Numbered from the stretch's first letter, positions 5,579 to 48,109 are shown. The stretch: 64,000 nt of DNA from an uncultured SAR324 cluster bacterium (GCA_902564345.1 CACFAY010000002.1:7858-71857), one strand, 5' to 3'. The notes: generated by a model not told the origin, from the letters alone. Program-made: numbers and translations.

Positions 5579-5610
5579 AATCAGCGAGCCTTTTTAAAAC
5601 AGATAAATTT

Positions 5611-6327: not shown

Positions 6328-6599
6328 TACTACACCTTATTTAGTTTTTAACAATCTATTTGTGCGCACACCATTCCGCGAGTTTACATCTGTCACTTTC
6401 CAACTGTAAACGTACAGCACGCCTTGAAACAGTACCAACTTAGTGCTGCATTGGATATCCTACTTTAAAATGTGATCAAAGTCAAATATAATTCTAACTC
6501 CATCATACTCCTTAAATTGTGCTATATGCTAACTAAGTACGAGTTTTGCAAAGCATACTAAGTTATTTTATTCGAATATTTTTTAACCATCACATAATT

Positions 6600-8219: not shown

Positions 8220-8332
8220 ATCTAAATAGTGTTTTTTAATTCTAAAGGTTAATTTTTTTTAAACGTAATTAGTTGGGAAAAAAAGATCACCTGTTGTCAT
8301 AAATTTAGTTTTTCACAATTTCCTCAATAATA

Positions 8333-9193
8333 ATGAAATTTCTTAAATATCACGCGCTGGGAAACGATTATCTTGTTCTGGATTCTGGGAAAAATGATTC
8401 CCCAATGATTTCTCTTACTTCTGAAAAAGTTCGGAAAATATGTAATCGTAATTTCGGATTGGGTGCGGACGGAATTTTGGTTGGTACCAAATACGATTCT
8501 GAAAAACACTTCAATCTAAAAATATTTAATCCAGACGGAAGTATTGCTGAAAAAAGTGGTAATGGACTGCGAATTTTCGCACGGTTTCTCTGGGAGCAAA
8601 AGTATGTTAATGAGTCTCAATTTAATATAATTACATCGGGAGGACTTGCAACTGCAATTGTAGAGAATTCAGGATCAAATGTTTCAGTTGAGATGGGTAA
8701 AGTCAGTTTTCAAAGTGATCAAATTCCAGTTGCAGGCGAAAACAGAGAGGTGTTGAACGAAAAAATAGATATAGATGGTCAGCAACTAAAATTCTGCGCC
8801 CTAACAATAGGTAATCCTCACTGTGTCGTGCTGAATGGAGAACAAACTCCCGAGGAAGTCCGAAGAATTGGCCCCTTCATTGAAAACCACCAAAATTTCC
8901 CAAACCGAACAAATGTGCAGTTTCTTGAAGTAATAGACCGTGGTAAAATCCGAATAGAAATTTGGGAACGTGGTGCTGGTTATACACTTGCCTCTGGAAC
9001 CAGCAGTTGTGCTGCCGCAGCAGTTGCGCATAGGATTGGTTTATGTGAAAGAAATATTGTGGTTCTAATGCCTGGCGGGGAAATTGATATCAAAGTCAAT
9101 GAAGATTATAGTATCTCCATGAGAGGTCCAGTTACTCGTGTCGGAAGGATGACGCTTGATCCTGAATGTCTTGATCAAGAAACTTCTGGGTGA
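8333..9193 (+). CDS. Diaminopimelate-epimerase-fold protein (DapF family) with Ser at both positions that align to the catalytic cysteines
   Basis: 286 aa. YHALGNDYLVLD, FNPDGSIAEKSGNGLRIFARF, GNPHCVV and WERGAGYTLASGTSSCAAAAVA align by eye with E. coli/B. subtilis DapF blocks (GLGNDF, N.DGSE...CGNG.RC, GNPH, ERG.G.T.ACG[ST]GACAA). Confidence 0.75.
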   Translation: MKFLKYHALGNDYLVLDSGKNDSPMISLTSEKVRKICNRNFGLGADGILVGTKYDSEKHFNLKIFNPDGSIAEKSGNGLRIFARFLWEQKYVNESQFNIITSGGLATAIVENSGSNVSVEMGKVSFQSDQIPVAGENREVLNEKIDIDGQQLKFCALTIGNPHCVVLNGEQTPEEVRRIGPFIENHQNFPNRTNVQFLEVIDRGKIRIEIWERGAGYTLASGTSSCAAAAVAHRIGLCERNIVVLMPGGEIDIKVNEDYSISMRGPVTRVGRMTLDPECLDQETSG

Positions 9194-9828
9194 TTGAAAG
9201 TATTTGGGTAGTTTTTACAGCAGGGTTGCTGCTTGGAGCTCCATCGGGGTTTGCACCCGGACCTATGCTACTGCTGATCATTTCAGAGACTCTTCGTCAT
9301 GGCAAACATGCTGGTTTTAAAGTAGCATGCATTCCTTTTCTTACAGACGTTCCTATTGTGGTGACTTCGGGACTGCTTTTCACTAAAATTACCAACATGA
9401 ACATGCTTTTGGGTGGAATTTCCATAATTGGTTCTATTTTCCTATTATATTTGGGGATCAAAAGCATACGTGCCACCAATTCAGAATTCCACAATTGCAC
9501 TCCTCATCCGCTGCTATTAAAAGAAATAATATTTGCTAACCTCGCAAACCCAAATCCTTACCTATTTTGGTTTACTGTAGGGGGTCCCCTTATGGTAAGA
9601 TCATTTCAACAAAATTTAGGTACTGGTATCATTTTTCTTTTGAGTTTTTACCTTGGCCTAATAGGAGTGAAATTGATTGTCGCAATTGCCACTGGGGAAT
9701 CCAGAGATTTTATGCAAGGATATTTGTACCGACGCATCATGCAGTTGCTAAGCCTAATGCTTATGATCTTCGCAGGTTATCTTATGCTGGAAGGTCTAGT
9801 TTTCCTCGGTTTACTGCAAAATTGGTAA
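9190..9828 (+). CDS. LysE/RhtB-family amino acid exporter
   Basis: 212 aa with about 6 TM. N-terminal GPMLLLIISETLRHGKHAGFKV-type LysE motif. The GTG start overlaps the upstream TGA (GTGA at 9190-9193). Confidence 0.7.
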   Translation: MIESIWVVFTAGLLLGAPSGFAPGPMLLLIISETLRHGKHAGFKVACIPFLTDVPIVVTSGLLFTKITNMNMLLGGISIIGSIFLLYLGIKSIRATNSEFHNCTPHPLLLKEIIFANLANPNPYLFWFTVGGPLMVRSFQQNLGTGIIFLLSFYLGLIGVKLIVAIATGESRDFMQGYLYRRIMQLLSLMLMIFAGYLMLEGLVFLGLLQNW

Positions 9829-9912
9829 TTTAGTTCCAAGTTAAATCTTGATAAGATAGGAGTGCGCTAGTGAAAATTTGCAGTCTTACAAAAAGTGTTG
9901 ATTTAAAATAGA

Positions 9913-11520
9913 CTAATTCTTAGATTTAAAAATTTTCATTTCTGACTTCAGTTGTATGGAAATTCTAACTGCATGATCTTCTCTTAAAAGTAGTAATAAT
10001 AGTAGATAAATCAAAGTAGAACCAACCAATAAGCCTGCAAATACTATCCAGTTTTGAAGAAGAAACGGTCCCTGCTCCCATAATCCGAACTTTCCGAACT
10101 GCCATATGAAGATGGACATTCCTCCGGAAGCAAACAAAAAAAGGAGTGTTGAACGAAGAGGGATATAACTTTTGCGAAGTTCGGGTTGCCTCAGTAGAAA
10201 CAAACGCAACAGGAAAAATTGAAACCATGTACCAGCAACAAGCCCCAGACCAAGTCCAAAAATTTCCAAGGTCTGACTAAACCACCACCCTAATATTCCT
10301 GTCACCACAATACTAATAATTGAAATTTTAACCGGAGTAGAGCTGTCTTTGAGTGAAAAAAAGACTGATGTCTTTAGCCGAACTAGAGCAACCGCAGGGA
10401 TGCTCAAAGCTAAAGCCTGTAGAGTGAGTGCCGTATTTTGAACATCACTCCATTTATATTCTCCATGAAAATAGAGCATCGAGACAATAGGCTCTGCCGC
10501 AAATAAGAGTCCCATACTAGCAGGTATTACCACCAAAAAAGTCGTGGCCATAGTGAAGCAAATTGTGCTGCGTATTTTCTGCCAATTTGTATCAGAAGTG
10601 TGCTTGCTTAATTCAGGGAATGCTGCTGTAGTGATTGCAAAAGCAAACACTCCCAGAGTCAGTTCAGAAAGCCTGCTGGCATTATAATAATGTGTTACTT
10701 GTCCTGAGGGCAGGAAACTCGCAATGTTACGAAGTACTATAATATTAATCTGATATACAGCAACACCAATTAATGAGGGGCCTAGTAAGCGCAACAATCT
10801 TTGGATGTGCTGGTCATTGAAAAAATTTCTCGGAGTGATTGACTGACCCACCTGTATCAGAGATGGTATTTGAAGAAAAATTTGTATAATCCCTCCTAAA
10901 AGAACTCCAACTCCAATACCTATAATAGGTTTTTCCAGAAAAGGTGATATTACAAAAGCTGCTCCTATCATTCCAACATTCAAAAAAATCGGTGCTGCTG
11001 CTGGGGCGGCAAAACGCCCTTCAGCATTGAGAATACCCATAGACCATGCAACCAACGAAACCAAAATCAAGTAAGGGAACATTATCCGTGTCAGAATAAC
11101 TGTTAGTTGAAACTTTTCAGGACTTGATGCAAAACCTGCAGCAAAAAGAAAAACAAGTTGGGGACTGAATATCATGCCAAGACCCGTTAAAATCGTAGTC
11201 ATCCCAAGCACAAGTCCCAAAGTTTTTGAAGCAAATTTCTTTGCAGTATGGGGATCATTTTTTTCACGTATTTCGGTATAAAGAGGAAGGAAAGCCAGAG
11301 TCATTGATCCTTCTGCAGTAAGTCGCCTCAAAACATTCGGAATCGTGAATGCCTGCACAAAAGCATCAGTAATCCATCCAGCTCCAAAGACATGTGCAAT
11401 CACTAGGTCACGGACTGCACCCAATACTCGTGACAGAAAAGTGAAAAATGTAATAGTTCCTGCGCGTTTAAGTATGCGTCTGGAATCTTCAGAAGTATTT
11501 TTCAAAGGAATAGACTTCAA
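9913..11520 (-). CDS. murJ: Lipid II flippase MurJ (MviN)
   Basis: 535 aa polytopic protein. SRVLGAVRDLVIAHVFGAGWITDAFVQAFTIPNVLRRLTAEGSMTLAFLPLY is the characteristic MurJ N-terminus. The start is TTG as in the track. Confidence 0.9.
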   Translation of the reverse strand: MKSIPLKNTSEDSRRILKRAGTITFFTFLSRVLGAVRDLVIAHVFGAGWITDAFVQAFTIPNVLRRLTAEGSMTLAFLPLYTEIREKNDPHTAKKFASKTLGLVLGMTTILTGLGMIFSPQLVFLFAAGFASSPEKFQLTVILTRIMFPYLILVSLVAWSMGILNAEGRFAAPAAAPIFLNVGMIGAAFVISPFLEKPIIGIGVGVLLGGIIQIFLQIPSLIQVGQSITPRNFFNDQHIQRLLRLLGPSLIGVAVYQINIIVLRNIASFLPSGQVTHYYNASRLSELTLGVFAFAITTAAFPELSKHTSDTNWQKIRSTICFTMATTFLVVIPASMGLLFAAEPIVSMLYFHGEYKWSDVQNTALTLQALALSIPAVALVRLKTSVFFSLKDSSTPVKISIISIVVTGILGWWFSQTLEIFGLGLGLVAGTWFQFFLLRLFLLRQPELRKSYIPLRSTLLFLFASGGMSIFIWQFGKFGLWEQGPFLLQNWIVFAGLLVGSTLIYLLLLLLLREDHAVRISIQLKSEMKIFKSKN

Positions 11521-11574
11521 GAATAATTTCTCTGAATTTTAAGGAAGGCTTAAATTGTTTCAATGTTAAAAATA

Positions 11575-12840
11575 TCAGATACTAAAATTTGCTGATTCAC
11601 CTATTTCAGATTCAATCTCCAGCAAGCGGTTATATTTTGCAATACGTTCACTACGTGAAGCCGAACCTGTTTTGATCTGTCCACCTGCCATTGCAACAGC
11701 AAAGTCAGCCATAAATGTATCTTCAGTTTCTCCACTTCGATGTGAAATAATGTAATTCCATCCTGCTTTTTGGCAAAGCCGAATTGTAGCCAAAGTTTCT
11801 GAAACGGTTCCTATCTGATTAAGTTTAATTAGCACTGCATTGGCAGCTTTTTTACTTATACCCTTGCTAACAAAATCTGTATTAGTAACAAATAAGTCGT
11901 CTCCTACAATTTGAATCTTATCACCAAGTTTTTTTGTGATAGCAGAAAAACCCTCCCAGTCATTTTCATCCATGGGATCCTCTATTGATACTATTGGATA
12001 GTTTTCTACCAAGCTTCCGTAAAATTCCATCATATCTGTTGAGCTTTTTGTACCTGATCCGGATTTCTGAAAAATATAAGATCCTTGGTTACAAAATGAA
12101 GAAGCTGCTGCGTCAATTGCCATGAATATTTCTTTTCCTGGCTCATAACCTGCTAATTGAATTGCTTCGATAATAACTTCGCAAGCTTCTTCGTTACTTT
12201 CAAGATTTGGAGCAAAACCACCTTCATCTCCTACACTAGTTGCGTAACCTTTTGACTGCAAAATCTTTTTCAGTGCATGAAATGTTTCCGCACCATATCG
12301 AAGAGCTTCCCGGAAAGAGGACGCCCCAGATGGTATTATCATGAATTCCTGCAAATCAACACTGTTATCAGCATGTTCTCCCCCATTTATTATATTCATC
12401 ATAGGCACTGGCAGTCTAAGCTCTGAGACTCTTCCCAGATAAACGTAAAGAGGAACTTTTTGAGACATTGCAGCCGCTACCGAGGCGGCCATTGAGACAC
12501 TTAGAATAGCATTTGCTCCCAAGTTACTTTTTGTAGAAGTGTCGTCAAGCTCAAGCATCATCCTGTCAATTTCATCCTGCTTGTCAGGAGTCATTCCTAA
12601 AAGTTCCGGAGCAATTTTGCTATTCACGTTGTCAACTGCATTTAGCACTCCCTTTCCACCGTAACGCTTCTTGTCGCCATCACGAAGTTCAAGGGCCTCG
12701 TTTTCTCCAGTTGATGCTCCAGAAGGAACTGAAGAAACTCCACAAACACCGTTTTCCAAGCTTACCCTTGTTCGAATTGTAGGGTTCCCACGGGAATCCA
12801 ATATTTCCATCGCTTCAATTGAAATGATCTGATTTTTCAT
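11575..12840 (-). CDS. eno: Enolase
   Basis: 421 aa. [26 protein letters not shown] and [10 protein letters not shown] motifs. Confidence 0.95.
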
Positions 12841-13396
12841 AAGAGAGTCCTTTTCTAGTATTTCATATAGATAAGCTAAAATTTTTTATGATTATAGATA
12901 ACATTCATACTGTTTTGCTACAATCCAAAATAGGATTAATTGCATAATTACTTCAGCAGCCTATTACAATTCATTTTTTTATTTGATTATTTTTTAAATA
13001 AAACAACACAGTTGATCCAATATTCAAAAAAAGAAAAATTCACCTAAATTTATAATAAAGATTAAAGAATAAGTATGATTTAATTCCTAACTTTTTTCTC
13101 ACTTTTTTTTATTTAAAAGACATCAGGAATAAAATTTTCACTAAAATTAAGGATTAATATAAAAAAATGTCACATGAGTAGCAAAATAATTTTCTTTGTA
13201 TATACAGTATTTTAACTTTACTTCTTCCACATAAATTGAAAATTGCCAATACCTAATTTGAACATCAGGCAAAAATATTGCTACATATAACATAGTACGA
13301 AAAAAAAATTGCATCATTATTGAGAGAATATTACCAATTTTTGAAAGCTTTATTTTTTTCAAATTTTAATATTAAACAAAGTTTTATAGAAATTAA

Positions 13397-13636
13397 ATGA
13401 AGAAAGTTTTCTATCCTTTTACTGAACAACCAAAAGCTGAATTTAAGACAAAAGATGACGACTGGTTGATAGAAGAAAACTTCTTGAATCTTTGGGGATA
13501 CTTGCGAAGGAGGTATCCTAATGTTGACCTAGAGGATAAAAAATTCAATGATTTAATAGAATTAAAAACCTCCCTAGAAGGTCCCCGTGAATTAAGAGAA
13601 TGGAACGAAGCCATAGCATCTGTTCTCAAACACTGA
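13397..13636 (+). CDS. Hypothetical 79-aa protein (ORFan)
   Basis: ORF only. No obvious Shine-Dalgarno. An equally long antisense ORF exists, so coding status is uncertain. Confidence 0.35.
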   Translation: MKKVFYPFTEQPKAEFKTKDDDWLIEENFLNLWGYLRRRYPNVDLEDKKFNDLIELKTSLEGPRELREWNEAIASVLKH

Positions 13637-18570: not shown

Positions 18571-20529
18571 CTAATTTTCTAAATCAAATATTTTTCCTGC
18601 AACACGGATATTATCTTTACGAATTGTAAATTTTTGGGTATCAAAATACTCCAACAAATCAATTGCATATTTTCTTGAAACTTTTATTAATTCTTTAAAC
18701 TGGATAACATTTATATCTGGGTTTTTCTCAAAAAATTCCCGTAGGATTGTCAAAATTCTTTGAATTTGTTCTGGCTTGTAGTATAAATCCTCAGATATAC
18801 GTACAAGTTTTTTGGTATGAGTGGCGAATTTAAGCAATTCTATTCCATCCTTCTCATACACCCCCATTTCTTCTAGTAATCTGGTTTTTCGCATTGGTTG
18901 AAATCCACCATTTTTGATGATTTGAAGACACTTTACCAAACTTTCTTGAAGGATTTGAGAAATTTTTACCTGATGATATTCCAGAAAAAAATACTTACCC
19001 TTATTTAATATAATGCCTGAATCACACAAATATATTAACAAATTTTCTATTTCTTTTTCTGTAAAAATCAAAGACATTTTCCCTGATAGCTCAGCATGTG
19101 TAATTCCTTCGCGTTCTGGAAATTTTTGATGATGATTTTTTAAAACTTTGCTAATAAATTTTCCAATTCGCTTTATATGATCTATGTGCAAATAGCGGCC
19201 TGAGACCGAGTCTATACAAAGAACCTGACCTTTTTCTTGCAGGATCTGTAAAATTTTTAAACTATCTTTTTCTGAAAGACCTGTACGAACCTGAAATTCT
19301 GAATGAAAAACTCCTCGAACTGACCGCAAATATATTACTTCTTCAGAGCGTACATATTCATCACCATCCATCAATCGCCCGAGCCTCACTGAAAGATCCT
19401 GCTGCATTCTTCGGGATTTACTTGGAGAAGGGTCAATTATAATTCCTCCTCCAATGGTGTTCATTGGCGAGAAACTTCTTATGATAAATCTGTCACCGTA
19501 TTTGCCACTTAAAATTCTTTCAGCACGAAACTGAACCATTACAGTTTCTCCTGGCAACAAAGATTTTCCTTCCAAAAGTATAATCCTGCCTATAAGCTCC
19601 TGAGTACCAAGATGAAGTCTTACTCGTGTCCTGTTTTTCAAAGGAGTTGAAGCATCTTTCAATAAAGACAATGATGCATTTATCATATATCCAGAAAGCA
19701 ATGATTCAGGATCTGCCAGCTGATTACCACGGAATACTTCTTCCTTGGTAATTCCGGTTAAATTAAGTGCAACCCTTTGCCCTGCTTTAACCTCTTTTAC
19801 CTCAGTTCCATGAGACTGCATTCCTCTAATGCGGATTTCACGGACCTGCGGATACTGAACAAGCCTCCGGTTATGGCTTAAAAACCCCGTCAATACAGTT
19901 CCAGTTACAACTGTTCCAAAACCTTTTAATGTGAAAGAACGGTCAACATACAGTCTAAAAGGCTTTTCTATTTCTGGATTAACAATTTTTTTTGCAAGTT
20001 TTGCAATTTCATCACGAAGTTTCTTCAAGCCTTCACCTGTTAGTGCTGAAACAGTAATTACTGGGGCGGATTCCATAAAAGTTCCCTCAAGTAAAGTAAA
20101 AACTTCCTCTTTGCATATTTCAAGAATTTCTCTGTCTTCAAGCAGATCTATTCGTGTGAGGGCGACAATGCCAGATTTAATATTTAAAAGATTGCATATA
20201 TTCACATGTTCTCTGGTTTGCGGCATAACGCCTTCATCTGCGGCCACCACTAGTAAAACAGCATCCATTCCTGTAGCCCCTGCTAGCATATTGTGAACAA
20301 ATTTTTCGTGACCTGGGACGTCAACTATGGCTATGGTATTACCATCTTCGTCTTCATAATGAGCAAATCCTAAGTCAATGGTTATTCCGCGCATTTTTTC
20401 TTCAGCAAAACGATCAGTATCAACTCCTGTAAGAGCTTTTACTAATGAAGTTTTTCCATGATCGATATGACCGCTAGTACCTATTACGAATGGATTTGAA
20501 GATGGAATTTCTTCTTTGACACCTGACAT
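18571..20529 (-). CDS. selB: Selenocysteine-specific translation elongation factor SelB
   Basis: 652 aa. [48 protein letters not shown] and TRID G-domain motifs, plus the long C-terminal extension (winged-helix region) that distinguishes SelB from EF-Tu. Confidence 0.9.
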
Positions 20530-20737: not shown

Positions 20738-21475
20738 ATGAATAAGCTTAAAAACAAGATTTTGTTTTTTTACTCAGCAATTACGCTGCTAACATTTGTT
20801 TATCCTGCCAGAGCCGTTGAAATATTCTCAAGAGACTCTGAACACAGGGGTGTTGTAGAGTTTGCACCATACCTTATTTATCCAGAAAATAGGATTGGCA
20901 ACGGGATTTATCTTGAAAAAAAACTTTTGGGTTCCCATCCACAGAGGGTCATTATTAACATTGTAAACGTAAATGGTACTGACAACCATATATATCTTTA
21001 TCGTGGATTGAAGGGGGTTTTTGGGCTTGATATTGTAAAAAATAATACAGGAGAAGATGTAAGATTTTGGCAGGTAGATCCTGAATTTTATCAGTATTCA
21101 AACAGGACTTCGGGGACAAGAAGAGTGTTCAGGATTTTTAAAGATAGAATAATACCCTTGCTGCCCAATCTTCGTACTGGGTCGGGTGTAACTACATCTA
21201 AAACTCACGCAGTTTTTTACCACATCTCAAATTCAAAAAATGTAACCAGCGTCAATCAGAATGGACAGGAATCAACAAACAGAATTTATACTTTTAGGCT
21301 GCATGTGATCAAACGTGATTTGGAAGGTTTAGTAAGTCTTTATGACATACCAATTAAGGATGCCAATTACTTGCTAAAGCTTGATTGGGAAAACAAACAT
21401 TCTGTGAGCTATAAACTTAGTAATAGCAAAAAGTATACTATCGATCTAAGGAAACATGCTCCAAGCCTCTTTTGA
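20738..21475 (+). CDS. Hypothetical secreted protein (245 aa)
   Basis: N-terminal signal peptide (ILFFYSAITLLTFVYPARA/VE). No family recognised. Confidence 0.55.
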   Translation: MNKLKNKILFFYSAITLLTFVYPARAVEIFSRDSEHRGVVEFAPYLIYPENRIGNGIYLEKKLLGSHPQRVIINIVNVNGTDNHIYLYRGLKGVFGLDIVKNNTGEDVRFWQVDPEFYQYSNRTSGTRRVFRIFKDRIIPLLPNLRTGSGVTTSKTHAVFYHISNSKNVTSVNQNGQESTNRIYTFRLHVIKRDLEGLVSLYDIPIKDANYLLKLDWENKHSVSYKLSNSKKYTIDLRKHAPSLF

Positions 21476-24769: not shown

Positions 24770-25062
24770 GTAGTTGACTGAAAAAGATGAATTTTTAACG
24801 CTTTTTTCAGCTGTCCTAAGTGAATTAAAACCAAAATGCACAATTATTTTTAATGTAAGTGCAAGTATGTAATTAAATTTATTTTATTAGGATAATTTTG
24901 CTGTATTAAATCAATGTGATAAAAAAATCTAATCAACAAGCATACCTCTTTAAATATCCATAAGAATAAATCTTATCTGCACAAAAATACTTTAAAGTCT
25001 CCTTCAAAGTTTAATTGCTTATCAAAAAGCTGCCATATGAAACATGAATATTTCATTCTTAA

Positions 25063-26172
25063 ATGAGAATAACTGTATTGAGAGTTCAAAAACTTCTGAC
25101 TGCCTTGTTAAGCCTGTGGATTTTTTTAATCCCCTTGGCAAATGCCTCAGAACCTGCCTTTGTGAGAGAAAGTCTGCGAGCCCGTGGAATGGGCAATGCT
25201 TTTACAGCGGTTGCGAATGATGAAATGCTATTTTTTTATAACCCTGCAGGGTTACGATCAGTTATTTATAACATTTATGAGATCGTTAGTTTTAATTTTA
25301 CAGTAAATGAAAACACTCTTAGTATGAGTAATTCTAGTAACAGCAGCTCTACCCTAGGGAGTCTATCGGGGAAAAAACTTTATGTTGAGTACAATGTTGG
25401 TCTATTGAGTCATATTAATTCAAGATTTGGATGGTCATTATTTCAAAATACATTGATTGACATTCAGGTAAGGAATCCAGTTTTTCCATATTTGGAAACA
25501 AGATCATTTGTGCAGGCTGGTCTCGCGGGTGGGATGGCATGGAGTTTTCTTGACTATCAGCTTGATGTTGGACTTGGTGCCAAGCTTGTTCAAAGAGCTG
25601 GAATAGACACAAAATTCCACGTGTTTGACGAGGCAATTATTGAACTCACGGAAGAAAATAAATATACCAAACTTGCAAATAAATTTGAGAATAAAACCGC
25701 TATTGCCCCTGATGCCGGGATAGTATATCACTTTGACGGAGTACACAACCTGTATCCAAAAGTTGCAATAAGTCTGCAAAATATAGGTGGTCTAGACTTC
25801 AATAATGCGGGAGAAGTACCTATGACAATGAACTTAGGAGTTAGCACTGAATCTGAACTTGGGGGTTTTGATTTAATACTTGCCGCAGATTATCTAGACT
25901 TAACCGATGGACAAAACCTGGTTTCTACAGGGAATTCAATCACTGAAAGAAACATTAAGTTTGGAGCTGAAATTGGCTGGAAAAAGTTATTTAATGGACA
26001 TCATCTTTTTTCTATTAGGGCTGGAAGAAATGGGCCATATAATAGTGCAGGATGGACCCTGAACTTATTTGGTTTTAAAATTGATGTTGCAAAATACGCT
26101 CAAGAAATTGGTGGCTACTCTGGTGAAATGATGGACCAAAGGACCAGTCTTCAAATTTCAACGATTTTTTAG
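25063..26172 (+). CDS. Outer-membrane beta-barrel protein (resembles PorV / TraF_2 / FadL-like barrels)
   Basis: Signal peptide ending LANA/SEP. N-terminal MGNAFTAVANDEMLFFYNPAGL motif. Gly/aromatic-rich sequence with an aromatic C-terminus ...LQISTIF, typical of BAM substrates. Confidence 0.65.
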   Translation: MRITVLRVQKLLTALLSLWIFLIPLANASEPAFVRESLRARGMGNAFTAVANDEMLFFYNPAGLRSVIYNIYEIVSFNFTVNENTLSMSNSSNSSSTLGSLSGKKLYVEYNVGLLSHINSRFGWSLFQNTLIDIQVRNPVFPYLETRSFVQAGLAGGMAWSFLDYQLDVGLGAKLVQRAGIDTKFHVFDEAIIELTEENKYTKLANKFENKTAIAPDAGIVYHFDGVHNLYPKVAISLQNIGGLDFNNAGEVPMTMNLGVSTESELGGFDLILAADYLDLTDGQNLVSTGNSITERNIKFGAEIGWKKLFNGHHLFSIRAGRNGPYNSAGWTLNLFGFKIDVAKYAQEIGGYSGEMMDQRTSLQISTIF

Positions 26173-26200
26173 ATGCATTTATAACAAAACTGTAAATACG

Positions 26201-27784
26201 ATGTCTTATAGTTCACTCTTTATTTTAGCAGTAATTTTAATCTGTTTTAGTGGATGCACAACTCAGGGTAGATTGACTTATCTGAAATTCGAAAAAAGCG
26301 ACAACTATCAAGATTTAAACTCCTCTATGGAGAAACTAAAAAATCAGTATGACAGCTCTATTCAAAATCAACGGAGTGCTTTAAGAGAGATACGATATAT
26401 TTCAAAGCATATGAAGGAGCCGGGCAAGCGTGAAATGGCACTGAGTGCTTTGACATTTTTTACATTCATGAGTGACGACGGAGATATTCGAGACAAAAGT
26501 CTTTCACGACTTAATAATGTGCTAGATGAACCTGAGTGGCCAAAACATTTAAAATTAAACATAATTGACAGCATTGTTGATCTTGTTACAGGCAGATTGG
26601 GTTTCCAAGAAAAACATGATGGAATGATGATGATTTTCGGTGTGGCCCCAGAAGTACGCGAAGATGCTTTAATGTACCTGCTTAACAAATTTGAAGGACT
26701 TGAACCGCAACTTCAGTACCATACTGTAAGTTCATTTCTCAGACTATTACTTACAAAGCCAACCTTGGTAAACTGTCCGGAGAATATTTGCGACGAAGAT
26801 ATCAGAAAAAATCAGGAAGAATGGGATCTTGGAGTAGAAATAAAAGCTAGTATACCTGATAACGCAGATCCCAAAGCAGTTGAAGCAGGAGCATATGGTC
26901 CTTTGACCAAACGTGAACCGCTTGAAGAACGGGAAGAGTGGAATGAAGAAATGGACGAACTCAAATTGATACTTTGGGAATGGATTGAAGATGCCCTTGA
27001 TGATCAAGATGTTTCTTATCTGATTCAAGGTCGATTGATTAGATTTGCAGGAGAAATAGAGCTTTTCTCACTACAAGAGGAAACGTCAAACGAGTTTATT
27101 GAACAAATATCTGAATGGGCAGAGAATGAGGATATTTCAGTTGATTTAAGAAAATTGCTTGGTGCCTCAAGGGAAAAGGTGAAAATTTACGGGTTCCCTT
27201 CAACAAAATCACCTCAGCTATCTGAAAAAGCTTTTGAAGGAATAAAAAAAAGACCCATAGATTTTTTGGAAACCCACATAGACGCAATTTTGCATCAACA
27301 GTTTGAACGTCAGAAAAGTGGCTTTGATCCGGGTGAACCTGATGCTCTAGGCCTGGCTTTTACTTCGTTCAATGAAACGGATGAAGGAGATCTAAGGAGA
27401 GAAATAATCCTTGAAAATGTAACTACAGCATTGCAAAAAGGATTGCTGGGAGACATTTCGTATATAGCAGAACGCGCCTTGAAATCAATTGAAAATACTC
27501 GTTCTGATGTAGACCTAGAACCTTTATTGAATCTTGTCAGTGCTTTGTATCCTTCACTGAAAGCACAAAAACGAAGTCCCAAGCCATTATTCGAAACTTT
27601 GTTAGAAAAAGTGGAGTCAGCCGAAACACTATTTGAGCGTAGATTATATCTCAATGCAATTCTTGCAGGGGCAACAGTTTTTCCGATGGAGACTAACCTA
27701 ATCCTAGCAAGTACTAGCGACCAGGACGTAGTTACAAGTCACCAAATTAATTCAGTAATACAGAAATTAGATGAAAATTTTTAA
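26201..27784 (+). CDS. Hypothetical lipoprotein (527 aa), acidic, helical-repeat-like
   Basis: Signal peptide with lipobox-like ICFSG/C. Starts 28 nt after the OMP stop. No family recognised and no haem motif. Confidence 0.6.
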   Translation: MSYSSLFILAVILICFSGCTTQGRLTYLKFEKSDNYQDLNSSMEKLKNQYDSSIQNQRSALREIRYISKHMKEPGKREMALSALTFFTFMSDDGDIRDKSLSRLNNVLDEPEWPKHLKLNIIDSIVDLVTGRLGFQEKHDGMMMIFGVAPEVREDALMYLLNKFEGLEPQLQYHTVSSFLRLLLTKPTLVNCPENICDEDIRKNQEEWDLGVEIKASIPDNADPKAVEAGAYGPLTKREPLEEREEWNEEMDELKLILWEWIEDALDDQDVSYLIQGRLIRFAGEIELFSLQEETSNEFIEQISEWAENEDISVDLRKLLGASREKVKIYGFPSTKSPQLSEKAFEGIKKRPIDFLETHIDAILHQQFERQKSGFDPGEPDALGLAFTSFNETDEGDLRREIILENVTTALQKGLLGDISYIAERALKSIENTRSDVDLEPLLNLVSALYPSLKAQKRSPKPLFETLLEKVESAETLFERRLYLNAILAGATVFPMETNLILASTSDQDVVTSHQINSVIQKLDENF

Positions 27785-27834
27785 TTGTAAACTGAGTACA
27801 TAACAAATTTGATCAGTTTAACAAAATTTTTTTT

Positions 27835-29139
27835 ATGAATTCCATTATCAAAATATTAACCTTTTTTATAATGCTTTTGACATTATTTTCCTGTGCCGAC
27901 ACACAGAATTCTGGGCAAAGTTGCGAGGTCAAGCTTGATGAGCAAAAGTATCAATCTGTTGCAGAAAACACCAATTGCTCAGATTATGAAAGGGGCAGTG
28001 GCTACTTGGGACAAGCTGGCGTATCTTTCAGTAACTTTCTCCAAACTGGAGCTGCAGACAATATGACTAAAACTCTGGGAATTGAAAAACTAAGCTCTCC
28101 CACAGACTACACAACAGGCAATAGGGGTTACATAACAAATGCACTATGTTTAATTGGTGCAAATTCATTCGTAACATCGAGCCGATGCAATGGAAGTTCA
28201 AGGACGCGAACCACTGATGAACTTGAAATATCAATGTTTGCCAATATAGCTGATTTTCTCTATCTAAACTATGGTATTCTTGATAATGATACCGACGGTA
28301 CAATTACCTCAGAAGAAAGCGCAGCTTTCACTAAACTAAAGACGGAAGGAATAAGTGTCGCTGGATTGGGCACAGGGCTTTCTGCATATAATCGATACGA
28401 AGTTGTAGCAGGTAGCTCAAATTATATCGCAAATCAGGATCTTTCTAAATGTGTTGCATATGATGGAAACTACACAGACGACCCATCAAGTGGAGATTCA
28501 ACATGTGCAACACTCCAAGCTTCTGGTAGCGTTACTGAGATAAGACCTATCTACAAATTGGACTCCATGGAGGATATTACAGCTGACGGAGATCTGCTGA
28601 CTTTAGTTTCAATGGTAAGCGAACTTACGATGATTTCTACTGCTCTTTCTTCAGATTTTGAAGAGCTTGGAATAAGCTCTGATAACAGTATAAGAAAAAG
28701 TCTTACTGAAGCACTCGACAAAATAGATAATGGAGCAAAAGATAATAATCCTACGGCTGACCAAACATGCTTAGCAGTGATTTTATTTGATGTCATGTTT
28801 TTACTTGTTCAAAACGCCTCAGACAACAGCACTACTTCAACAGAGTTAAAAAGTGGAAACTTGATCAGCACATCAGATTTGTTAACTGCTGTAGACAATA
28901 CCCTTAGTCTTTACCCATCTGATGCAATTGAGGCTGCACTTGGATCACTTCCGATTCAATCTGCCAGAATTGTTTACGCAACAGACAGTCCGGCCACAAC
29001 ATACACTGATTCATACGAATCCGCAGAAAACTCATTATATTCAGCAATAGCCAACACACGCAGCCTTGGCACGGAAGACAGTGAAAAAAGTGATGGGAAA
29101 GTAACATTCCGAGAATTAATTTGTGTTGCAGAAAACTAA
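27835..29139 (+). CDS. Hypothetical lipoprotein (434 aa) with a canonical EF-hand Ca-binding loop
   Basis: Lipobox LTLFS/C. DNDTDGTITSEE at 28282-28317 fits the 12-residue EF-hand loop at every constrained position. S/T/D-rich. Confidence 0.6.
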   Translation: MNSIIKILTFFIMLLTLFSCADTQNSGQSCEVKLDEQKYQSVAENTNCSDYERGSGYLGQAGVSFSNFLQTGAADNMTKTLGIEKLSSPTDYTTGNRGYITNALCLIGANSFVTSSRCNGSSRTRTTDELEISMFANIADFLYLNYGILDNDTDGTITSEESAAFTKLKTEGISVAGLGTGLSAYNRYEVVAGSSNYIANQDLSKCVAYDGNYTDDPSSGDSTCATLQASGSVTEIRPIYKLDSMEDITADGDLLTLVSMVSELTMISTALSSDFEELGISSDNSIRKSLTEALDKIDNGAKDNNPTADQTCLAVILFDVMFLLVQNASDNSTTSTELKSGNLISTSDLLTAVDNTLSLYPSDAIEAALGSLPIQSARIVYATDSPATTYTDSYESAENSLYSAIANTRSLGTEDSEKSDGKVTFRELICVAEN

Positions 29140-29140
29140 T

Positions 29141-30493
29141 ATGCAATTGATTGTCGCATTTACTTTCATGAGTTTTGTGATTTTTCCAACATTTACGTTT
29201 GCACAAAATCCAATTTTGTTTTTTTCAGGTGACTTACGGGGAGAAATAAAACCATGCGGTTGTGCAGAAGAAGGCGACATGGGAGGTCTCTTACGAAGAT
29301 TGACTTATATTAAACAGAACAATTCAGTTAATAGGATTATTTATTTTGATCTAGGTAATAATTTCCCTGTACCCTCACAGCAGGGCGATCTTAAAATACC
29401 GCTGATTCATTCCGCACTAGAAAAAATGAATCCGGAAGTTGTTCTGGTTGGTCCTAATGAATGGCAAAACGGATTGCATTGGCTTGATTCAAAAGTCCCA
29501 TATCTTCTTAGCAATCAAAGCAAAAAACTTAATTTTTTGAATTTAAAAATTATCAATCATGAAAACCACCAAATAATAGTACTTGGTTATTTATCACCAA
29601 CTCTCGTTTATCAGAATAAGAATGATTCTCCAATTATATTCCCGATTAATCAGGAATTATTAACAAGTTGGAGTGACAAAATTCAAAAAAATATAGCTCA
29701 GTTTCGAATACTATTATTTCGAGGGAATGAACACGAATTAAATTTATTTGAAAAGTCAAACATGTTTGATCTTATTGTTGCAGGAAGCAACAATAATGAT
29801 GAGCTAAATCAAGTTTTGAAAATGGAGGTGGACACTAGAGATATTCCCATGATACCAACCAAAGGACAGGGGATCTTATCAGTGGAGTTGGATGTAAATG
29901 AAAAGATTATTCTGGCTAACCAAGAAAACGATTCGGGGAGTTTATCTGTTTCTTGGCTAGGAAGAAATATAGAAGATGATCCTGAACTTTTAGAATCATT
30001 CATGAGTTATGATGACGCTGTTAAAAAATTATTTTTCAGAAATTTGGAACTAAAGAAAGAGCATTTGAAAGACTCTCCGTTTATTGGTAATCAAGTTTGC
30101 GCTGCTTGCCATCCTAAAAGCATGGACATTTGGAAAAAGAGTCGACATGCAAACGCTTTTGCCACACTAGAAAAACTAGGTAAGCATTTTGATCCTGAAT
30201 GCCTAGAATGTCATGTGGTCGGCCTAAAACCATGGACCACAACAGAAAGTTCTTCAGAGGCAATAAGGAAATTTGAGGGAAAAAGAGGATTCCTTAGTAT
30301 GGAATTAACACCACATTTAGCGAATGTGCAGTGTGAAAACTGTCACGGACCTGCTTTAGATCACTTAGCCAATAGTAAAATTAAACCAGCTATGCACAAT
30401 CCTGATTCAGTTTGTGTCGAGTGTCATCAAGGAAGTCACTCTCCATTATTTGACTATAAAAAATACTGGCAAAAGATAAAACATGGACCATAA
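29141..30493 (+). CDS. Secreted two-domain protein: degenerate metallophosphoesterase/5'-nucleotidase-like N-domain with PCGC motif + C-terminal tetrahaem c-type cytochrome module (c554/NrfB-like spacing)
   Basis: The ATG at 29141 lies 1 nt after the upstream stop, and the signal peptide ends TFTFA/QN. Four CXXCH motifs: CAACH 30098-30112, CLECH 30200-30214, CENCH 30332-30346 and CVECH 30413-30427. The N-domain blocks FFSGDLRGE, GGLLRRLTYI, FDLGNN and VGPNEW parallel the DxHG, GG.AR.AT.I, GD and GNHE blocks of 5'-nucleotidases. Confidence 0.8.
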   Translation: MQLIVAFTFMSFVIFPTFTFAQNPILFFSGDLRGEIKPCGCAEEGDMGGLLRRLTYIKQNNSVNRIIYFDLGNNFPVPSQQGDLKIPLIHSALEKMNPEVVLVGPNEWQNGLHWLDSKVPYLLSNQSKKLNFLNLKIINHENHQIIVLGYLSPTLVYQNKNDSPIIFPINQELLTSWSDKIQKNIAQFRILLFRGNEHELNLFEKSNMFDLIVAGSNNNDELNQVLKMEVDTRDIPMIPTKGQGILSVELDVNEKIILANQENDSGSLSVSWLGRNIEDDPELLESFMSYDDAVKKLFFRNLELKKEHLKDSPFIGNQVCAACHPKSMDIWKKSRHANAFATLEKLGKHFDPECLECHVVGLKPWTTTESSSEAIRKFEGKRGFLSMELTPHLANVQCENCHGPALDHLANSKIKPAMHNPDSVCVECHQGSHSPLFDYKKYWQKIKHGP

Positions 30494-30503
30494 ATTTCAA
30501 GTT

Positions 30504-31376
30504 TTATAACATCCAACGATCACGCGCAGTTTTTGAAAGAGCTAGAAGTTCGACTAATTTTTTTTTATCATTATTTTTAATTTTTTCCTCAAGCGAAGAT
30601 AAGACTTTTTTAAAGGCAACAACTCTAGGAAGGAGTTTTTCTTGGTTTTCAAGAAAGATATCTGCCCACATTTCGGGACTTGAAGAAGCAATGCGTGAAA
30701 AATCCTTAAGTCCAGCACCAGAATGTCCCAAAGCTTCATGAGAGTCTGTATTTGAAATTGCCTGTATACAAGCGTAAGCAAGAATATGAGGTAAATGACT
30801 TACTGAAGCAAACATCTGATCATGAGATTCTGGATCCATTTCAGATACTTTAGCACCCATTGATTCCCAAAATCGTCTAACTATTAGAATCGATTCCTTA
30901 TCAGTTTTTTCTTTAGGAGTAATTATGCAGCGCTTACCAAAAAACAAATTATTTTGTGCTGCAGATGGTCCAAAATTTTCTGATCCTGCTATGGGATGTC
31001 CTCCCAAAAAACGAATTTTCTCATAATCATGAGAACACATCATTTTCAAAAGAGGAGATTTTACGCTGCCAGTGTCAGTTAAAATTGCTGTCGAAGAAAT
31101 ATTTGGAAGAATTAAAGGAAGGATATCTTTAAATGATTTCACAGGAACAGCCAACAAAACTAACTCTGCTTGAGCAAGTTTTTTGTCAGGCATGTTTGAA
31201 AGGTAATCAGCTAATTTTTCTGATTTGATCTCCTTGTGATATTCCTCGTTGTTATCATATCCAAGAATTTTTCGCGCCAGTCCTAAACGCCTAACATCTT
31301 TTGCAACCGAACCTCCAATAAGGCCAAGACCTACAATTGCTATTGCTTCAAACGGTTGGAATCCTGAAGCATTCAT
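30504..31376 (-). CDS. tyrA: Prephenate dehydrogenase
   Basis: 290 aa. Rossmann motif IAIVGLGLIGGS. Also GSVK and GGHPIAGSE motifs. Confidence 0.85.
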   Translation of the reverse strand: MNASGFQPFEAIAIVGLGLIGGSVAKDVRRLGLARKILGYDNNEEYHKEIKSEKLADYLSNMPDKKLAQAELVLLAVPVKSFKDILPLILPNISSTAILTDTGSVKSPLLKMMCSHDYEKIRFLGGHPIAGSENFGPSAAQNNLFFGKRCIITPKEKTDKESILIVRRFWESMGAKVSEMDPESHDQMFASVSHLPHILAYACIQAISNTDSHEALGHSGAGLKDFSRIASSSPEMWADIFLENQEKLLPRVVAFKKVLSSLEEKIKNNDKKKLVELLALSKTARDRWML

Positions 31377-47032: not shown

Positions 47033-48109
47033 TTAAATGGGATCTCTCATCATTAATCGATTTCGATAAAATATAATTACAGACAGAAACAATAGGAGCA
47101 GAATTATTACTGCAATACCTATATATTCAAAGGAATTTATTGGGATATTGATAATTTTTAATTCAAGTATATTAGAATCAGTAGCCTTAGCCTTCCACAC
47201 CAAAAAATCTATTTCTTGTATGTTTTGCTTTCCAGAAAAAATAAGCTGGGCAGATTTTATTTTCAATTGTCCTGAAGGAGTGAAGACACTCACTTTATCC
47301 AGTGAATGATTAAATTCCCTTTGGATTTGCAAACTCCCATATAAGGACTCTAGATTGTAATTAAAAATAATTTGTGTATTACCTGGTGGAAAAACACTTT
47401 TAATGATTAACATTCTATCATCAATTTGATGTTCAATATCAGGGCCAGAGTTACTTTGAATCATTTTAAAATTGTACAAACCCTTGGGAAGAGAATAATC
47501 TATTGAGTGGTCTCTTGTATCAATTCTGTCAGGTGATGAATTATAAAATGATATTACTTCTGTTAAAGTGACTGAGCTTAATCCAGATTCAATCACGAGT
47601 GACACCTGACTTATTTCAAGTTTGTTTATATCCGTGGATGATACTGGGATTTTAATATCTTTTTGATACTGATTCTTGCCGGCTTTGAAAAAGAAAACTT
47701 TTGTACTGTATAATTTACCAGCAACACGTGTCCCAAGCTGATATGCTGCCCGATAATCAGGATTCACTCTTAAAAACTGGAAATTACCCCTATTATCAGC
47801 TAGTACCCTGCCCTGTGGGCCTACTGGTGTTACCTGACCTTCTGCATTAAGTACTAATTTCAGCAAAACCACATTCAATCCTTCTTTTGGAACCAATTCC
47901 CCTGCCGGTAAAATAATTCTCCCTTTAACCGTAATTTCAGTTTGTGGAAGGTTTTCTGAAAAAACCTTATCAGAAGATCCTAAAGCAAAAAAAATATAAA
48001 TAGAGAAAAGGCATAAAAATATTTTGCTATAGGTTTTTCTCTTAACAAAAAAATATGAGGGAAAAACGATTTTGATAGTTTCCTTTATCATATTTAAAAA
48101 ATATCTCAT
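47033..48109 (-). CDS. Hypothetical bitopic protein: N-terminal signal/anchor, carboxypeptidase-regulatory-like beta-sandwich, beta-rich region, C-terminal TM anchor
   Basis: TVKGRIILPAGELVPKEGLNVVLLKL...ADNRGNFQFLRVNPDYRAAYQLG resembles CarboxypepD_reg-type domains. C-terminal helix IGIAVIILLLLFLSVIIFY. ATGA start/stop overlap with the upstream TPR gene. Confidence 0.5.
   Translation of the reverse strand: MRYFLNMIKETIKIVFPSYFFVKRKTYSKIFLCLFSIYIFFALGSSDKVFSENLPQTEITVKGRIILPAGELVPKEGLNVVLLKLVLNAEGQVTPVGPQGRVLADNRGNFQFLRVNPDYRAAYQLGTRVAGKLYSTKVFFFKAGKNQYQKDIKIPVSSTDINKLEISQVSLVIESGLSSVTLTEVISFYNSSPDRIDTRDHSIDYSLPKGLYNFKMIQSNSGPDIEHQIDDRMLIIKSVFPPGNTQIIFNYNLESLYGSLQIQREFNHSLDKVSVFTPSGQLKIKSAQLIFSGKQNIQEIDFLVWKAKATDSNILELKIINIPINSFEYIGIAVIILLLLFLSVIIFYRNRLMMRDPI

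Follow-up and report, generated by a model that had tools for sequence, protein, structure and literature searches.

A run of four same-strand genes (g1 to g4) in an uncultured SAR324 cluster bacterium raises the question of whether their exported products form one envelope redox complex or are held together for some other reason. The window, the whole stretch of 64,000 nucleotides that we analyzed, had previously been interpreted without database searches. That sequence-only reading saw in the barrel, the two lipoproteins and the periplasmic multihaem protein the organizational logic of the porin-cytochrome conduits, while noting that the haem count and the haem-free lipoproteins do not fit those systems. 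Our literature search found no published description of the g1-g4 cluster.

Layout and conservation of the cluster

Gaps of 28, 50 and 1 nt separate the four genes; none of them contains a terminator-like site, and the single terminator-like match on the plus strand falls within g1. The AT-rich spacer ahead of g1 (Table 1) is presumably the site of the promoter; a sigma-70 search upstream of g1 gave no outstanding match. A 79-aa ORF precedes g1 in most relatives (about 45 related loci) and left no trace in the spacer here. At the other end lies tyrA, which is convergent with the cluster at a stop-to-stop distance of 10 nt from g4 and is the downstream boundary, outside the cluster, while the locus L088 carries different genes 3' of the cluster. 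None of the neighboring genes points to a substrate. The g3-g4 junction is tight, with the same 1-nt gap in L001 and overlapping genes in L007 and L088; an alternative in-frame GTG start for g4 lies at 29123. Export signals can be read directly on all four products, as signal peptides on g1 and g4 and lipoboxes on g2 and g3, and g4 holds exactly four CXXCH motifs while g1, g2 and g3 hold none. In gene layout, boundaries, export and haem motifs, the earlier description was thus confirmed from the sequence.

Table 1. Features of the g1-g4 cluster and its borders, in window coordinates
Feature	Position	Strand	Details
Spacer 5' of g1	24770..25062	.	293 nt, 24.9% GC vs 36.5% for the window
g1	25063-26172	+	369 aa
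g1 conserved N-terminal segment R39-L64	25177..25254	+	RARGMGNAFTAVANDEMLFFYNPAGL; alignments A1, A2
g2	26201-27784	+	527 aa
g2 Cys19 (lipidation) and mature N-terminus	26255..26290	+	C-TTQGRLTYLKF; alignment A7
g3	27835-29139	+	434 aa
g3 candidate EF-hand calcium-binding loop D150-E161	28282..28317	+	DNDTDGTITSEE; Pfam EF-hand_1 0.018, below cutoff
g4	29141-30493	+	450 aa counted from ATG
g4 motif P38-C39-G40-C41	29252..29263	+	Cys form of the family PCGU (CxU) redox motif
g4 haem motif CAACH	30098-30112	+	residue 320
g4 haem motif CLECH	30200-30214	+	residue 354
g4 haem motif CENCH	30332-30346	+	residue 398
g4 haem motif CVECH	30413-30427	+	residue 425
tyrA, prephenate dehydrogenase	30504-31376	-	PDH_N 4.5e-34, PDH_C 2.1e-26

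We find the same arrangement in dozens of independent contigs, from marine metagenomes and MAGs, over which the identity of g2 falls from 87% to 38%, and the four-gene order is kept within marine SAR324. The expectation that the exported proteins are encoded in a conserved and closely packed cluster therefore held up in relatives, and g1-g4 is a genuine operon that uncultured marine bacteria of the SAR324 type have conserved. In every locus with room to see it, g1 lies directly upstream of g2 (52/52 loci, identity range 28-87%), and the two are also adjacent in the distant relative L008 at 42% (g1) and 28% (g2) identity. Likewise, g4 comes after g1-g2 in 23 of 23 loci with room, a lineage without g3 included, and both g3 and g4 do so in 21 of 23.

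The idea of four obligate partners did not survive this comparison. One lineage is missing g3, L008 has g1-g2-g3 without g4, and in five sister-clade loci (L003-L006 and L089) a solo g4 sits next to rsmB with no g1-g3 found within 8-10 kb. The clustered g4 genes are monophyletic and the solo genes are their sister clade. Judged by gene order across these loci, g4 is separable from g1-g3. Its long retention beside g1-g2 could reflect a closer functional tie than that of a "captured neighbor", and could equally be neutral.

The barrel and its lipoproteins

The g1 product carries a signal peptide at residues 1-28 (MRITVLRVQKLLTALLSLWIFLIPLANA, followed by SEP), leaving a mature protein of 341 aa whose C-terminus (...QISTIF) ends in F. 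It matches NF033709 PorV_fam (1.5e-8) over residues 39-343 and profile positions 14-305 of 326, with a score of 34.7 bits that is below the curated cutoff of 90. PorQ (NF033711) scores 20.8 bits against a cutoff of 220 and the PorV equivalog NF033710 does not match; with every curated score below its cutoff, we rejected g1 as a curated T9SS PorV or PorQ. A Pfam search with g1 itself returned no match, Toluene_X (PF03349) included. All 51 g1 relatives sampled match PorV_fam (best 9.7e-19). Toluene_X is matched by 10 of the 51 (best 1.6e-5), FadL-type FilD weakly by 10 and BamG (NF053685) weakly by 7 (best 1.6e-4), and some also match TraF_2 and UPF0164; the L088 orthologue has a weak precomputed Toluene_X match. 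Overall, g1 homologues comprise 622 representative clusters at E<=1e-3. The conserved N-terminal segment, with M43, G44, N60, P61 and A62 as invariant columns in both alignments, contains an NPA that we take to be the FadL-type plug ("hatch") motif.

By these profile matches, g1 is a divergent branch of the FadL/TodX/PorV superfamily, 14-stranded outer-membrane barrels that include E. coli FadL, PorV and PorQ of the T9SS and BamG of the Bacteroidota. It shares with them the near-full-length PorV/PorQ profile match, the NPA segment, a similar size and the terminal F, and, from profile coverage and homology, should have about 14 strands. Like PorV and BamG, g1 is genetically tied to lipoproteins (PMC12578637). 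However, it differs from the T9SS and BAM barrels in that its host is not a member of the Bacteroidota, the g1 neighborhood lacks T9SS and BAM genes (no T9SS parts were recognized among the ORFs of the partly annotated 64-kb window), and g2 and g3 have no relationship to BamH-K or to the cargo of the T9SS.

Pfam and NCBIfam searches with g2, whose lipobox is FSG-C19, found no family, and the gene is restricted to the lineage of this cluster. Its AF2 model, of moderate confidence (pLDDT 60.6), is made up entirely of helices, and Foldseek retrieved generic ARM/HEAT repeats alone (TM 0.2-0.29), suggesting an all-alpha, ARM/HEAT-like solenoid lipoprotein. At the mature N-terminus, C19, Q22, R24, T26, L28 and F30 are invariant in alignment A7, which includes L008 with an overall identity of 28%. 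We propose that this segment, the first 12 residues of the mature protein, would dock on the g1 barrel.

The g3 product is a Ser/Thr-rich lipoprotein with the lipobox LFS-C20 and 9 cysteines. No curated family was found in Pfam and NCBIfam searches, and Foldseek with its AF2 model, which is unusable (pLDDT 47.5), found nothing. The sub-cutoff EF-hand_1 match spans residues 149-161, in which D150, N151, G155 and E161 are invariant in alignment A4, and DSNLNGTITAAE is kept at this loop in the g3 of L008; g3 is probably calcium-binding. Comparison by hhalign of the mature sequences of g3 and a family of barrel-adjacent lipoproteins (alignment A5) gave a probability of 73.7% (E 2.9e-5), with controls at 0.2%. 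Across alignments the values ranged over 55-84%, with 83% when signal peptides were kept and 55-74% for mature sequences (E 2.9e-5 to 1.2e-4). The region of homology is limited to some 125-150 N-terminal residues, and both sides have the same motif order of lipid Cys, helix, "AYxGxxG", "RT" and D-x-D-G-x-I. The N-terminal ~150 residues of g3 are thus probably a remote homologue of this unnamed family. The earlier statement that neither lipoprotein could be placed holds for curated Pfam and NCBIfam families; among the four proteins, profile HMM searches gave sub-cutoff matches of g1 to PorV_fam and g4 to NF041198, and no curated family for g2 or g3.

An A5-type lipoprotein is encoded directly upstream of all 12 barrels scoring >=340 bits, which are the most g1-like, and of 30/81 barrels overall. 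This pairing of a lipoprotein with a PorV-like barrel occurs in Desulfobacterota, Nitrospirota, Nitrospinota and Bdellovibrionota and corresponds to no curated family. The cluster studied here resembles it in having a homologous barrel (23-29% identity) with a lipoprotein gene adjoining on the same strand. It differs in that the A5 lipoproteins are 230-350 aa long and lie upstream of the barrel whereas the longer g3 lies two genes downstream, with g2 between barrel and g3, and g4 appended.

These patterns bear on the possibility that g1 is a stand-alone FadL-type channel that takes up a hydrophobic nutrient (fatty acids or hydrocarbons, for example) and that the lipoproteins and g4 are untied neighbors. 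FadL channels are able to work without partners, and both the NPA motif of g1 and the Toluene_X matches among its relatives and in the L088 orthologue would fit such a role. However, the unfailing presence of g2 after g1 down to 28% identity, the lipoprotein of a single family directly upstream of each of the barrels in other phyla that most resemble g1, and the short intergenic gaps with no terminator-like site argue against it, and we consider this explanation unlikely.

By analogy, g1 with its lipoproteins might instead be an envelope-biogenesis device that helps its neighboring lipoproteins to fold, flip or reach display on the cell surface, as BamG does for BamH in the BAM of Bacteroidota, with g2 and g3 as its cargo and g4 unrelated. 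Slam barrels serve lipoproteins encoded beside them, and here too the lipoprotein genes always adjoin the barrel. The weak BamG and FilD matches among g1 relatives point the same way, as does the precedent of BamG and PorV (PMC12578637). Yet the BamG matches are very weak even at their best, genes for BamA, BamD or other biogenesis factors are absent from the neighborhood, and there is no DUF560/Slam signature, which leaves a device of this kind decidedly unlikely.

The tetrahaem protein and the electron-conduit question

The g4 product begins with a hydrophobic leader ending in TFTFA ahead of QNP, and matches NF041198 "UshA-like (seleno)protein" at 5.7e-55. Its score of 186.9 bits is below the equivalog cutoff of 275 so g4 is a homologue rather than a curated member. 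Both halves match this one model, with the N-terminal half alone (1.8e-16) aligning residues 22-226 to model positions 22-244 and the C-terminal 150 residues (1e-34) covering model positions 397-519; 36/36 g4 relatives also match it (best 7.1e-60). Pfam Cytochrome_C554 is found in g4 at 2.7e-12, and a PDB search with the profile of the g4 family (A6) retrieved 5'-nucleotidases (1.9e-5) and cytochrome c554 (1.7e-14). The haem motifs all fall within the last ~130 residues; their eight Cys and four His are all invariant in A6. By homology, g4 is predicted to be a periplasmic protein in which a 5'-nucleotidase/UshA-like fold at the N-terminus is followed by a tetrahaem c554-like domain at the C-terminus.

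"UshA-like (seleno)protein", the PCGU family, is listed among prokaryotic selenoprotein families (PMC13188914, PMC9312934) and is characterized by a CxU motif (PMC13188914). Similar to the family, g4 has P-C-G-[U/C], four CXXCH motifs and a periplasmic location; it differs in having Cys for Sec and 450 aa vs 519 model positions. The family name allows Cys forms, and PCGC is present in 45/45 g4 homologues of the fetched loci with TGA in 0/45. Judged by these matches, the 5'-nucleotidase-like and tetrahaem fusion is the standard architecture of the already catalogued NF041198. Since the members of NF041198 are functionally uncharacterized, the match assigns g4 no activity.

Could the four products nevertheless assemble into a single redox complex of the envelope and carry electrons through the outer membrane, in the manner of MtrCAB of Shewanella or Pcc of Geobacter? 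The resemblance lies in the idea of the gene order, in that one operon encodes an outer-membrane barrel, lipoproteins and a multihaem protein of the periplasm. It gains from the export of all four products, the constant place of g4 after g1-g2 even where g3 is lacking, the 1-nt g3-g4 gap, and a weak local similarity of the g4 haem domain to MtrC domain IV (4.8e-5). However, the MtrCAB and Pcc porins are large, about 20-26 strands, and of the MtrB/PioB or OmbB type, whereas g1 belongs to another class and size. We rejected g1 as an MtrB/Pcc-type porin given its 341 mature residues, the full-length PorV/PorQ profile match and no MtrB_PioB match at E<=1. The periplasmic cytochrome of these conduits has >=8 haems (eight to ten) and spans the porin, whereas g4 has four, fused to an enzyme-like domain; the conduits have an extracellular multihaem lipoprotein cytochrome, whereas g2 and g3 have lipoboxes and no haem motifs. 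Finally, in relatives the barrel and cytochrome genes can occur apart, as the solo g4 genes and L008 indicate. The barrel would be too small and, with its conserved plug motif, too plugged for a cytochrome and therefore the cluster is most likely not a trans-outer-membrane electron conduit, an explanation that we regard as highly improbable. The porin-cytochrome logic of the sequence-only reading thus gives way to a small FadL/PorV-type barrel and an NF041198-type protein.

A barrel-lipoprotein module and a captured enzyme

We favor an explanation, at roughly even odds of being correct, in which the cluster is a barrel-lipoprotein module A (g1 and g2, usually with g3) co-transcribed with a separately evolved enzyme module B (g4) that was captured once. 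Module A would be an outer-membrane assembly of the small plugged barrel g1, the solenoid g2, docked through its invariant mature N-terminus, and the Cys-rich g3. FadL channels provide lateral passage for hydrophobic molecules. By analogy with these channels, PorV and BamG, the most likely task of module A at the outer membrane is to capture a ligand or to present one; BamG-BamH and PorV are precedents for FadL-type barrels that bind lipoproteins or cargo (PMC12578637).

In module B, a degenerate 5'-nucleotidase fold with a Cys-x-Cys center (Cys-x-Sec in relatives) would be wired to four c-type haems. The most likely activity of the protein is the oxidation or reduction of a small substrate, perhaps of the chalcogen type, together with electron exchange with the cytochrome pool of the periplasm, and in other lineages the protein would work alone. 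We suggest that g4 came to lie 3' of module A in a single event, in the marine clade's ancestor, and that it has been translationally coupled ever since; it would therefore share its expression with module A and may act on whatever that module supplies.

A broader reading, which we think quite unlikely as a whole, is that an ancient undescribed module of a FadL/PorV-like barrel and a dedicated lipoprotein, common to SAR324, Desulfobacterota, Nitrospirota, Nitrospinota and Bdellovibrionota, gained a solenoid lipoprotein in marine SAR324 and became coupled there to a periplasmic oxidoreductase of the Cys/haem kind, providing a route by which a poorly soluble substrate would be imported and oxidized (or reduced). 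If such a route exists, hydrophobic sulfur or selenium species are examples of what it might handle, and it would operate in a host group, SAR324, that is among the most abundant deep-ocean bacteria.

Layout and gene order of the cluster

The sequence-only reading had described four exported-protein genes on one strand, and its account was borne out in every detail by the ORF list and by direct sequence reading. An outer-membrane barrel (g1), two lipoproteins (g2 and g3) and a haem enzyme (g4) are separated by gaps of 28, 50 and 1 nt. g1 has a signal peptide and a terminal Phe, g2 and g3 carry the lipoboxes FSG-C19 and LFS-C20, and g4 has a leader and four CXXCH motifs, a motif absent from g1, g2 and g3. 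A 293-nt spacer precedes g1 (24.9% GC, compared to 36.5% for the window), and the stop codon of g4 lies 10 nt from that of the convergent prephenate dehydrogenase gene, tyrA. A Rfam scan of the window gave zero matches, and a promoter and terminator scan gave none exceeding shuffled expectation.

We also observed an ORF of ~79 aa directly 5' of g1, on the same strand, that is conserved in about 45 related loci and has neither a signal peptide nor a Pfam family. Neither the window nor the loci most closely related to it (L001, L090, L093, L094 and others) have this ORF; the AT-rich 293-nt spacer takes its place there, and no remnant of the ORF was detectable in the window spacer (24770-25062). 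This ORF may be a fifth, cytoplasmic cluster member since lost by the window's sub-lineage.

Features of the window and of related loci (L-numbers; genome or metagenome contigs), with g1 to g4 taken from the ORF list
Feature	Position	Strand	Remarks
g1	25063-26172	+	369 aa
g2	26201-27784	+	527 aa
g3	27835-29139	+	434 aa
g4	29141-30493	+	450 aa counted from ATG; alternative in-frame GTG 29123
SelB (selenocysteine-specific elongation factor)	18571-20529	-	GTP_EFTU, SelB beta-barrel and winged-helix domains; complete
245-aa ORF	20738-21475	+	signal peptide, no Pfam family; between selB and HAD hydrolase gene
Envelope pair, first gene	48106-51327	-	1073 aa, TPR-rich, exported; uncharacterised
Envelope pair, second gene	47033-48109	-	358 aa, without family; uncharacterised
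79-aa ORF, examples	L087:5000-5239, L088:3631-3870, L007:9705-9929	same as g1	
L088 downstream genes	L088:9341-16573		rhodanese, phosphate-binding-type protein, two-component system, cbb3 oxidase genes
Bdellovibrio barrel paralogues	L029, L031, L037, L041, L049, about 5600-11100 each		lipoproteins of ~240 aa (opposite strand) and ~340 aa (same strand)
Oligoflexales barrel loci	L020, L026, L032, L036, about 9900-13500 each		

HMMs of all four proteins were run across all ORFs of 168 loci, drawn from species-representative genomes scanned with the barrel (as a 17-sequence alignment), metagenome contigs found with g2, and contigs encoding g4 homologues. Marine metagenomes supply the great majority of the related contigs. 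Proteins nearly identical to those of the cluster were found in Tara samples and in marine MAGs bearing the label 'Deltaproteobacteria bacterium'; g4 homologues at a greater distance (42-47% identity) bear the label 'SAR324 cluster bacterium'. Judging by these labels, the window probably belongs to a marine SAR324-type bacterium. g1 lies directly 5' of g2 in 52/52 loci with room for it. Where a contig extends 3 kb or more beyond g2 (23 loci), g3 and then g4 follow in 21 cases, so the synteny in relatives that the sequence-only reading had called for is present within marine SAR324. In the other two (L087 and L161) g3 is absent and g4 comes straight after g2, a junction also seen in the shorter contigs L148 and L149. 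The most distant locus, L008, from an unclassified bacterium (identity 42% for g1 and 28% for g2), has g1-g2-g3 followed by unrelated convergent genes and lacks g4. Five g4 homologues (L003-L006 and L089, identity 45-49%) are single genes, divergent from rsmB in four of these (L004-L006 and L089), and a search within 8-10 kb of them found no g1, g2 or g3. The SAR324 genomes with such solo genes include GCA_028281495.1, GCA_015231825.1 and GCA_015231885.1. Given these solitary g4 genes and the loci lacking g3 or g4, an obligate partnership of all four is unsupported. In a neighbour-joining tree, the clustered g4 genes form one clade and the solo genes its sister clade, a topology that fits a single joining event followed by retention through deep divergence.

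One locus, L088, of a SAR324 lineage, has all four genes with downstream neighbours other than tyrA-secFD, and therefore tyrA/secDF do not hold the cluster together. The neighbours in L088 have a sulfur/respiratory flavour, which could be coincidence.

The barrel and its lipoproteins

While g1 itself has no Pfam match, it aligns with the NCBIfam PorV/PorQ family profile (1.5e-8, residues 39-343, profile positions 14-305 of 326) far under the curated cutoff. An exhaustive HMMER search found homologues in 622 representative clusters at E<=1e-3, and all 51 sampled relatives match PorV_fam (best 9.7e-19), with further matches to PorVQ2 (47), FadL-type FilD (10) and BamG (7) in NCBIfam and to TraF_2 (22), Toluene_X (FadL/TodX; 10) and UPF0164 (3) in Pfam. 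The family alignment ends in Phe and has an invariant N-terminal segment, GMG..A..V...D.....NPAGL, which we take to be the FadL plug ('hatch') with its NPA motif. Against PDB sequences, the profile of g1 relatives gave marginal matches only (FadL-like CymD, 0.012; 3dwo, 0.29). The profile matches indicate that g1 is a divergent barrel of the FadL/TodX/PorV superfamily with a predicted 341 mature residues. An MtrB/PioB-type porin was rejected on this family assignment, and a genuine T9SS PorV because the cutoffs are unmet and the phylum is wrong. That g1 is a lone FadL-type channel, with no tie to the genes around it, would agree with the superfamily assignment; given the invariant g1-g2 order, we consider this unlikely.

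The most striking feature of g2 is its invariant mature N-terminus, C-TTQGRLTxLxF, which is kept even at 28% overall identity. Its AF2 model (pLDDT 60.6) has helices throughout, and no specific fold is assigned, as Foldseek returned generic ARM/HEAT solenoids alone (TM 0.2-0.29). The AF2 model of g3 was unusable (pLDDT 47.5) and gave no Foldseek match at E<=0.001. Several g3 cysteines are invariant. Its canonical EF-hand loop reads DNDTDGTITSEE, and even the most distant homologue keeps it, as DSNLNGTITAAE. Pfam and NCBIfam searches with g2, g3 and ten neighbour lipoproteins gave sub-threshold noise only (a BamD N-terminal resemblance, EF-hand), in keeping with the earlier statement that neither g2 nor g3 could be placed in a family.

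Outside SAR324, the barrels nearest g1 (26-29% identity) belong to Desulfobacterota, Nitrospirota and Nitrospinota. A lipoprotein of one family (230-350 aa) lies directly 5' on the same strand in 12/12 barrels scoring at least 340 bits, and a partner of this family accompanies 30 of all 81 barrels examined. The N-terminal ~150 residues of g3 align with this family in profile-profile comparison (hhalign, mature sequences, probability 73.7%, E 2.9e-5; reversed-sequence and g2 controls, both 0.2%), suggesting that g3 is a remote member of this unnamed lipoprotein family; g2 is unrelated to it (probability 0.2-0.6%). Bdellovibrio has three tandem paralogues of a PorV-like barrel, with two lipoprotein families interleaved, just 5' of AddAB-like helicase-nuclease genes; in Bdellovibrio bacteriovorus the homologous lipoprotein-barrel pair spans L037:8943-11083. 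The partner set differs for the same barrel family in Oligoflexales, where a divergent TetR-like gene precedes the barrel and two genes come after it. The first encodes a secreted protein of ~246 aa with a terminal Phe, perhaps itself a small barrel, and the second a ~520-aa beta-rich lipoprotein. None of the partner proteins in these other phyla matched a curated family. Pairing with lipoproteins is a general trait of g1's branch of the superfamily.

The haem enzyme

g4 matches NF041198, the 'UshA-like (seleno)protein' family, at 5.7e-55 and 186.9 bits (cutoff 275), and also Pfam Cytochrome_C554. Its N-terminal 300 residues alone match NF041198 positions 22-244 (1.8e-16) and its C-terminal 150 residues alone match positions 397-519 (1e-34). 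Since both halves match this single model, the supposed tetrahaem/phosphoesterase-like fusion is the normal architecture of the family: the two-part make-up stands and the novel domain fusion is rejected. Compared with solved structures, a profile of 36 g4 relatives matched cytochrome c554 (1.7e-14) as well as 5'-nucleotidases from both eukaryotes and bacteria (1.9e-5); the top PDB match, 6i5b ('Uncharacterized protein'), was set aside as multihaem similarity only. By these matches, g4 is a putative member, scoring below the threshold, of an enzyme family that is already catalogued.

The NF041198 motif P-C-G-U reads P-C-G-C in g4 and all 45 homologues from the fetched loci, among which no Sec (TGA) form was found. 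The gene for a complete SelB lies 5 kb upstream of the cluster, and the organism can therefore make selenoproteins. Despite SelB, g4 uses Cys in every homologue seen of this (seleno)protein family. Two prokaryotic selenoproteome reviews have 'UshA-like protein', with a CxU motif, as a bare catalogue entry without function. Members of NF041198 with Sec occur in Desulfobulbus and Geobacter relatives.

Proposed working and relation to known systems

We propose that g1 binds g2 via the invariant lipid-proximal segment, and usually g3 too, and that the resulting outer-membrane complex would handle a ligand there, by analogy with FadL channels, PorV and BamG. Of these, PorV and BamG are homologous to FadL and hold either cargo or a lipoprotein at the surface (PMC12578637). 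A device for lipoprotein display or biogenesis would also accord with this analogy and with the constant g1-g2 pair; we consider it quite improbable. In our preferred, ligand-handling reading, g4 would work in the periplasm as an oxidoreductase: its degenerate metallophosphatase fold would bear a Cys-x-Cys centre that exchanges electrons in either direction with the four haems. Presumably co-expressed in the marine clade, g4 may act on what the barrel complex imports. We give this composite about an even chance of being correct.

The sequence-only reading had likened the cluster to porin-cytochrome conduits (MtrCAB, Geobacter Pcc). Although a barrel, lipoproteins and a multihaem protein do occur together here, the cluster has none (0/3) of the three defining features of these conduits, so the conduit-like organisation falls and a trans-membrane redox complex is very improbable. 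No new kind of extracellular electron conduit is revealed, and the most exciting reading is unsupported.

A literature search found neither the cluster nor the barrel-lipoprotein pair described, and nothing functional on SAR324 with FadL or multihaem proteins or on UshA-like proteins with multihaem. FadL/PorV-type barrel-lipoprotein assemblies are the known kind here and the cluster is not categorically new; its parts include a new branch of a known barrel superfamily and, in g2, one lineage-restricted lipoprotein. No member of SAR324, a group abundant in the dark ocean, has been cultured, which makes its conserved exported-protein operons rare handles on its envelope physiology. The cluster offers a divergent FadL/PorV barrel branch always accompanied by lipoproteins, and points to an unnamed lipoprotein family pairing with such barrels in several phyla. 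It also gives the uncharacterised 'UshA-like (seleno)protein' family a genomic partner, and with that the first hint from gene context at a possible substrate of this Cys/Sec-haem enzyme. Elsewhere in the window, a 245-aa ORF and an envelope gene pair were also recorded (table).
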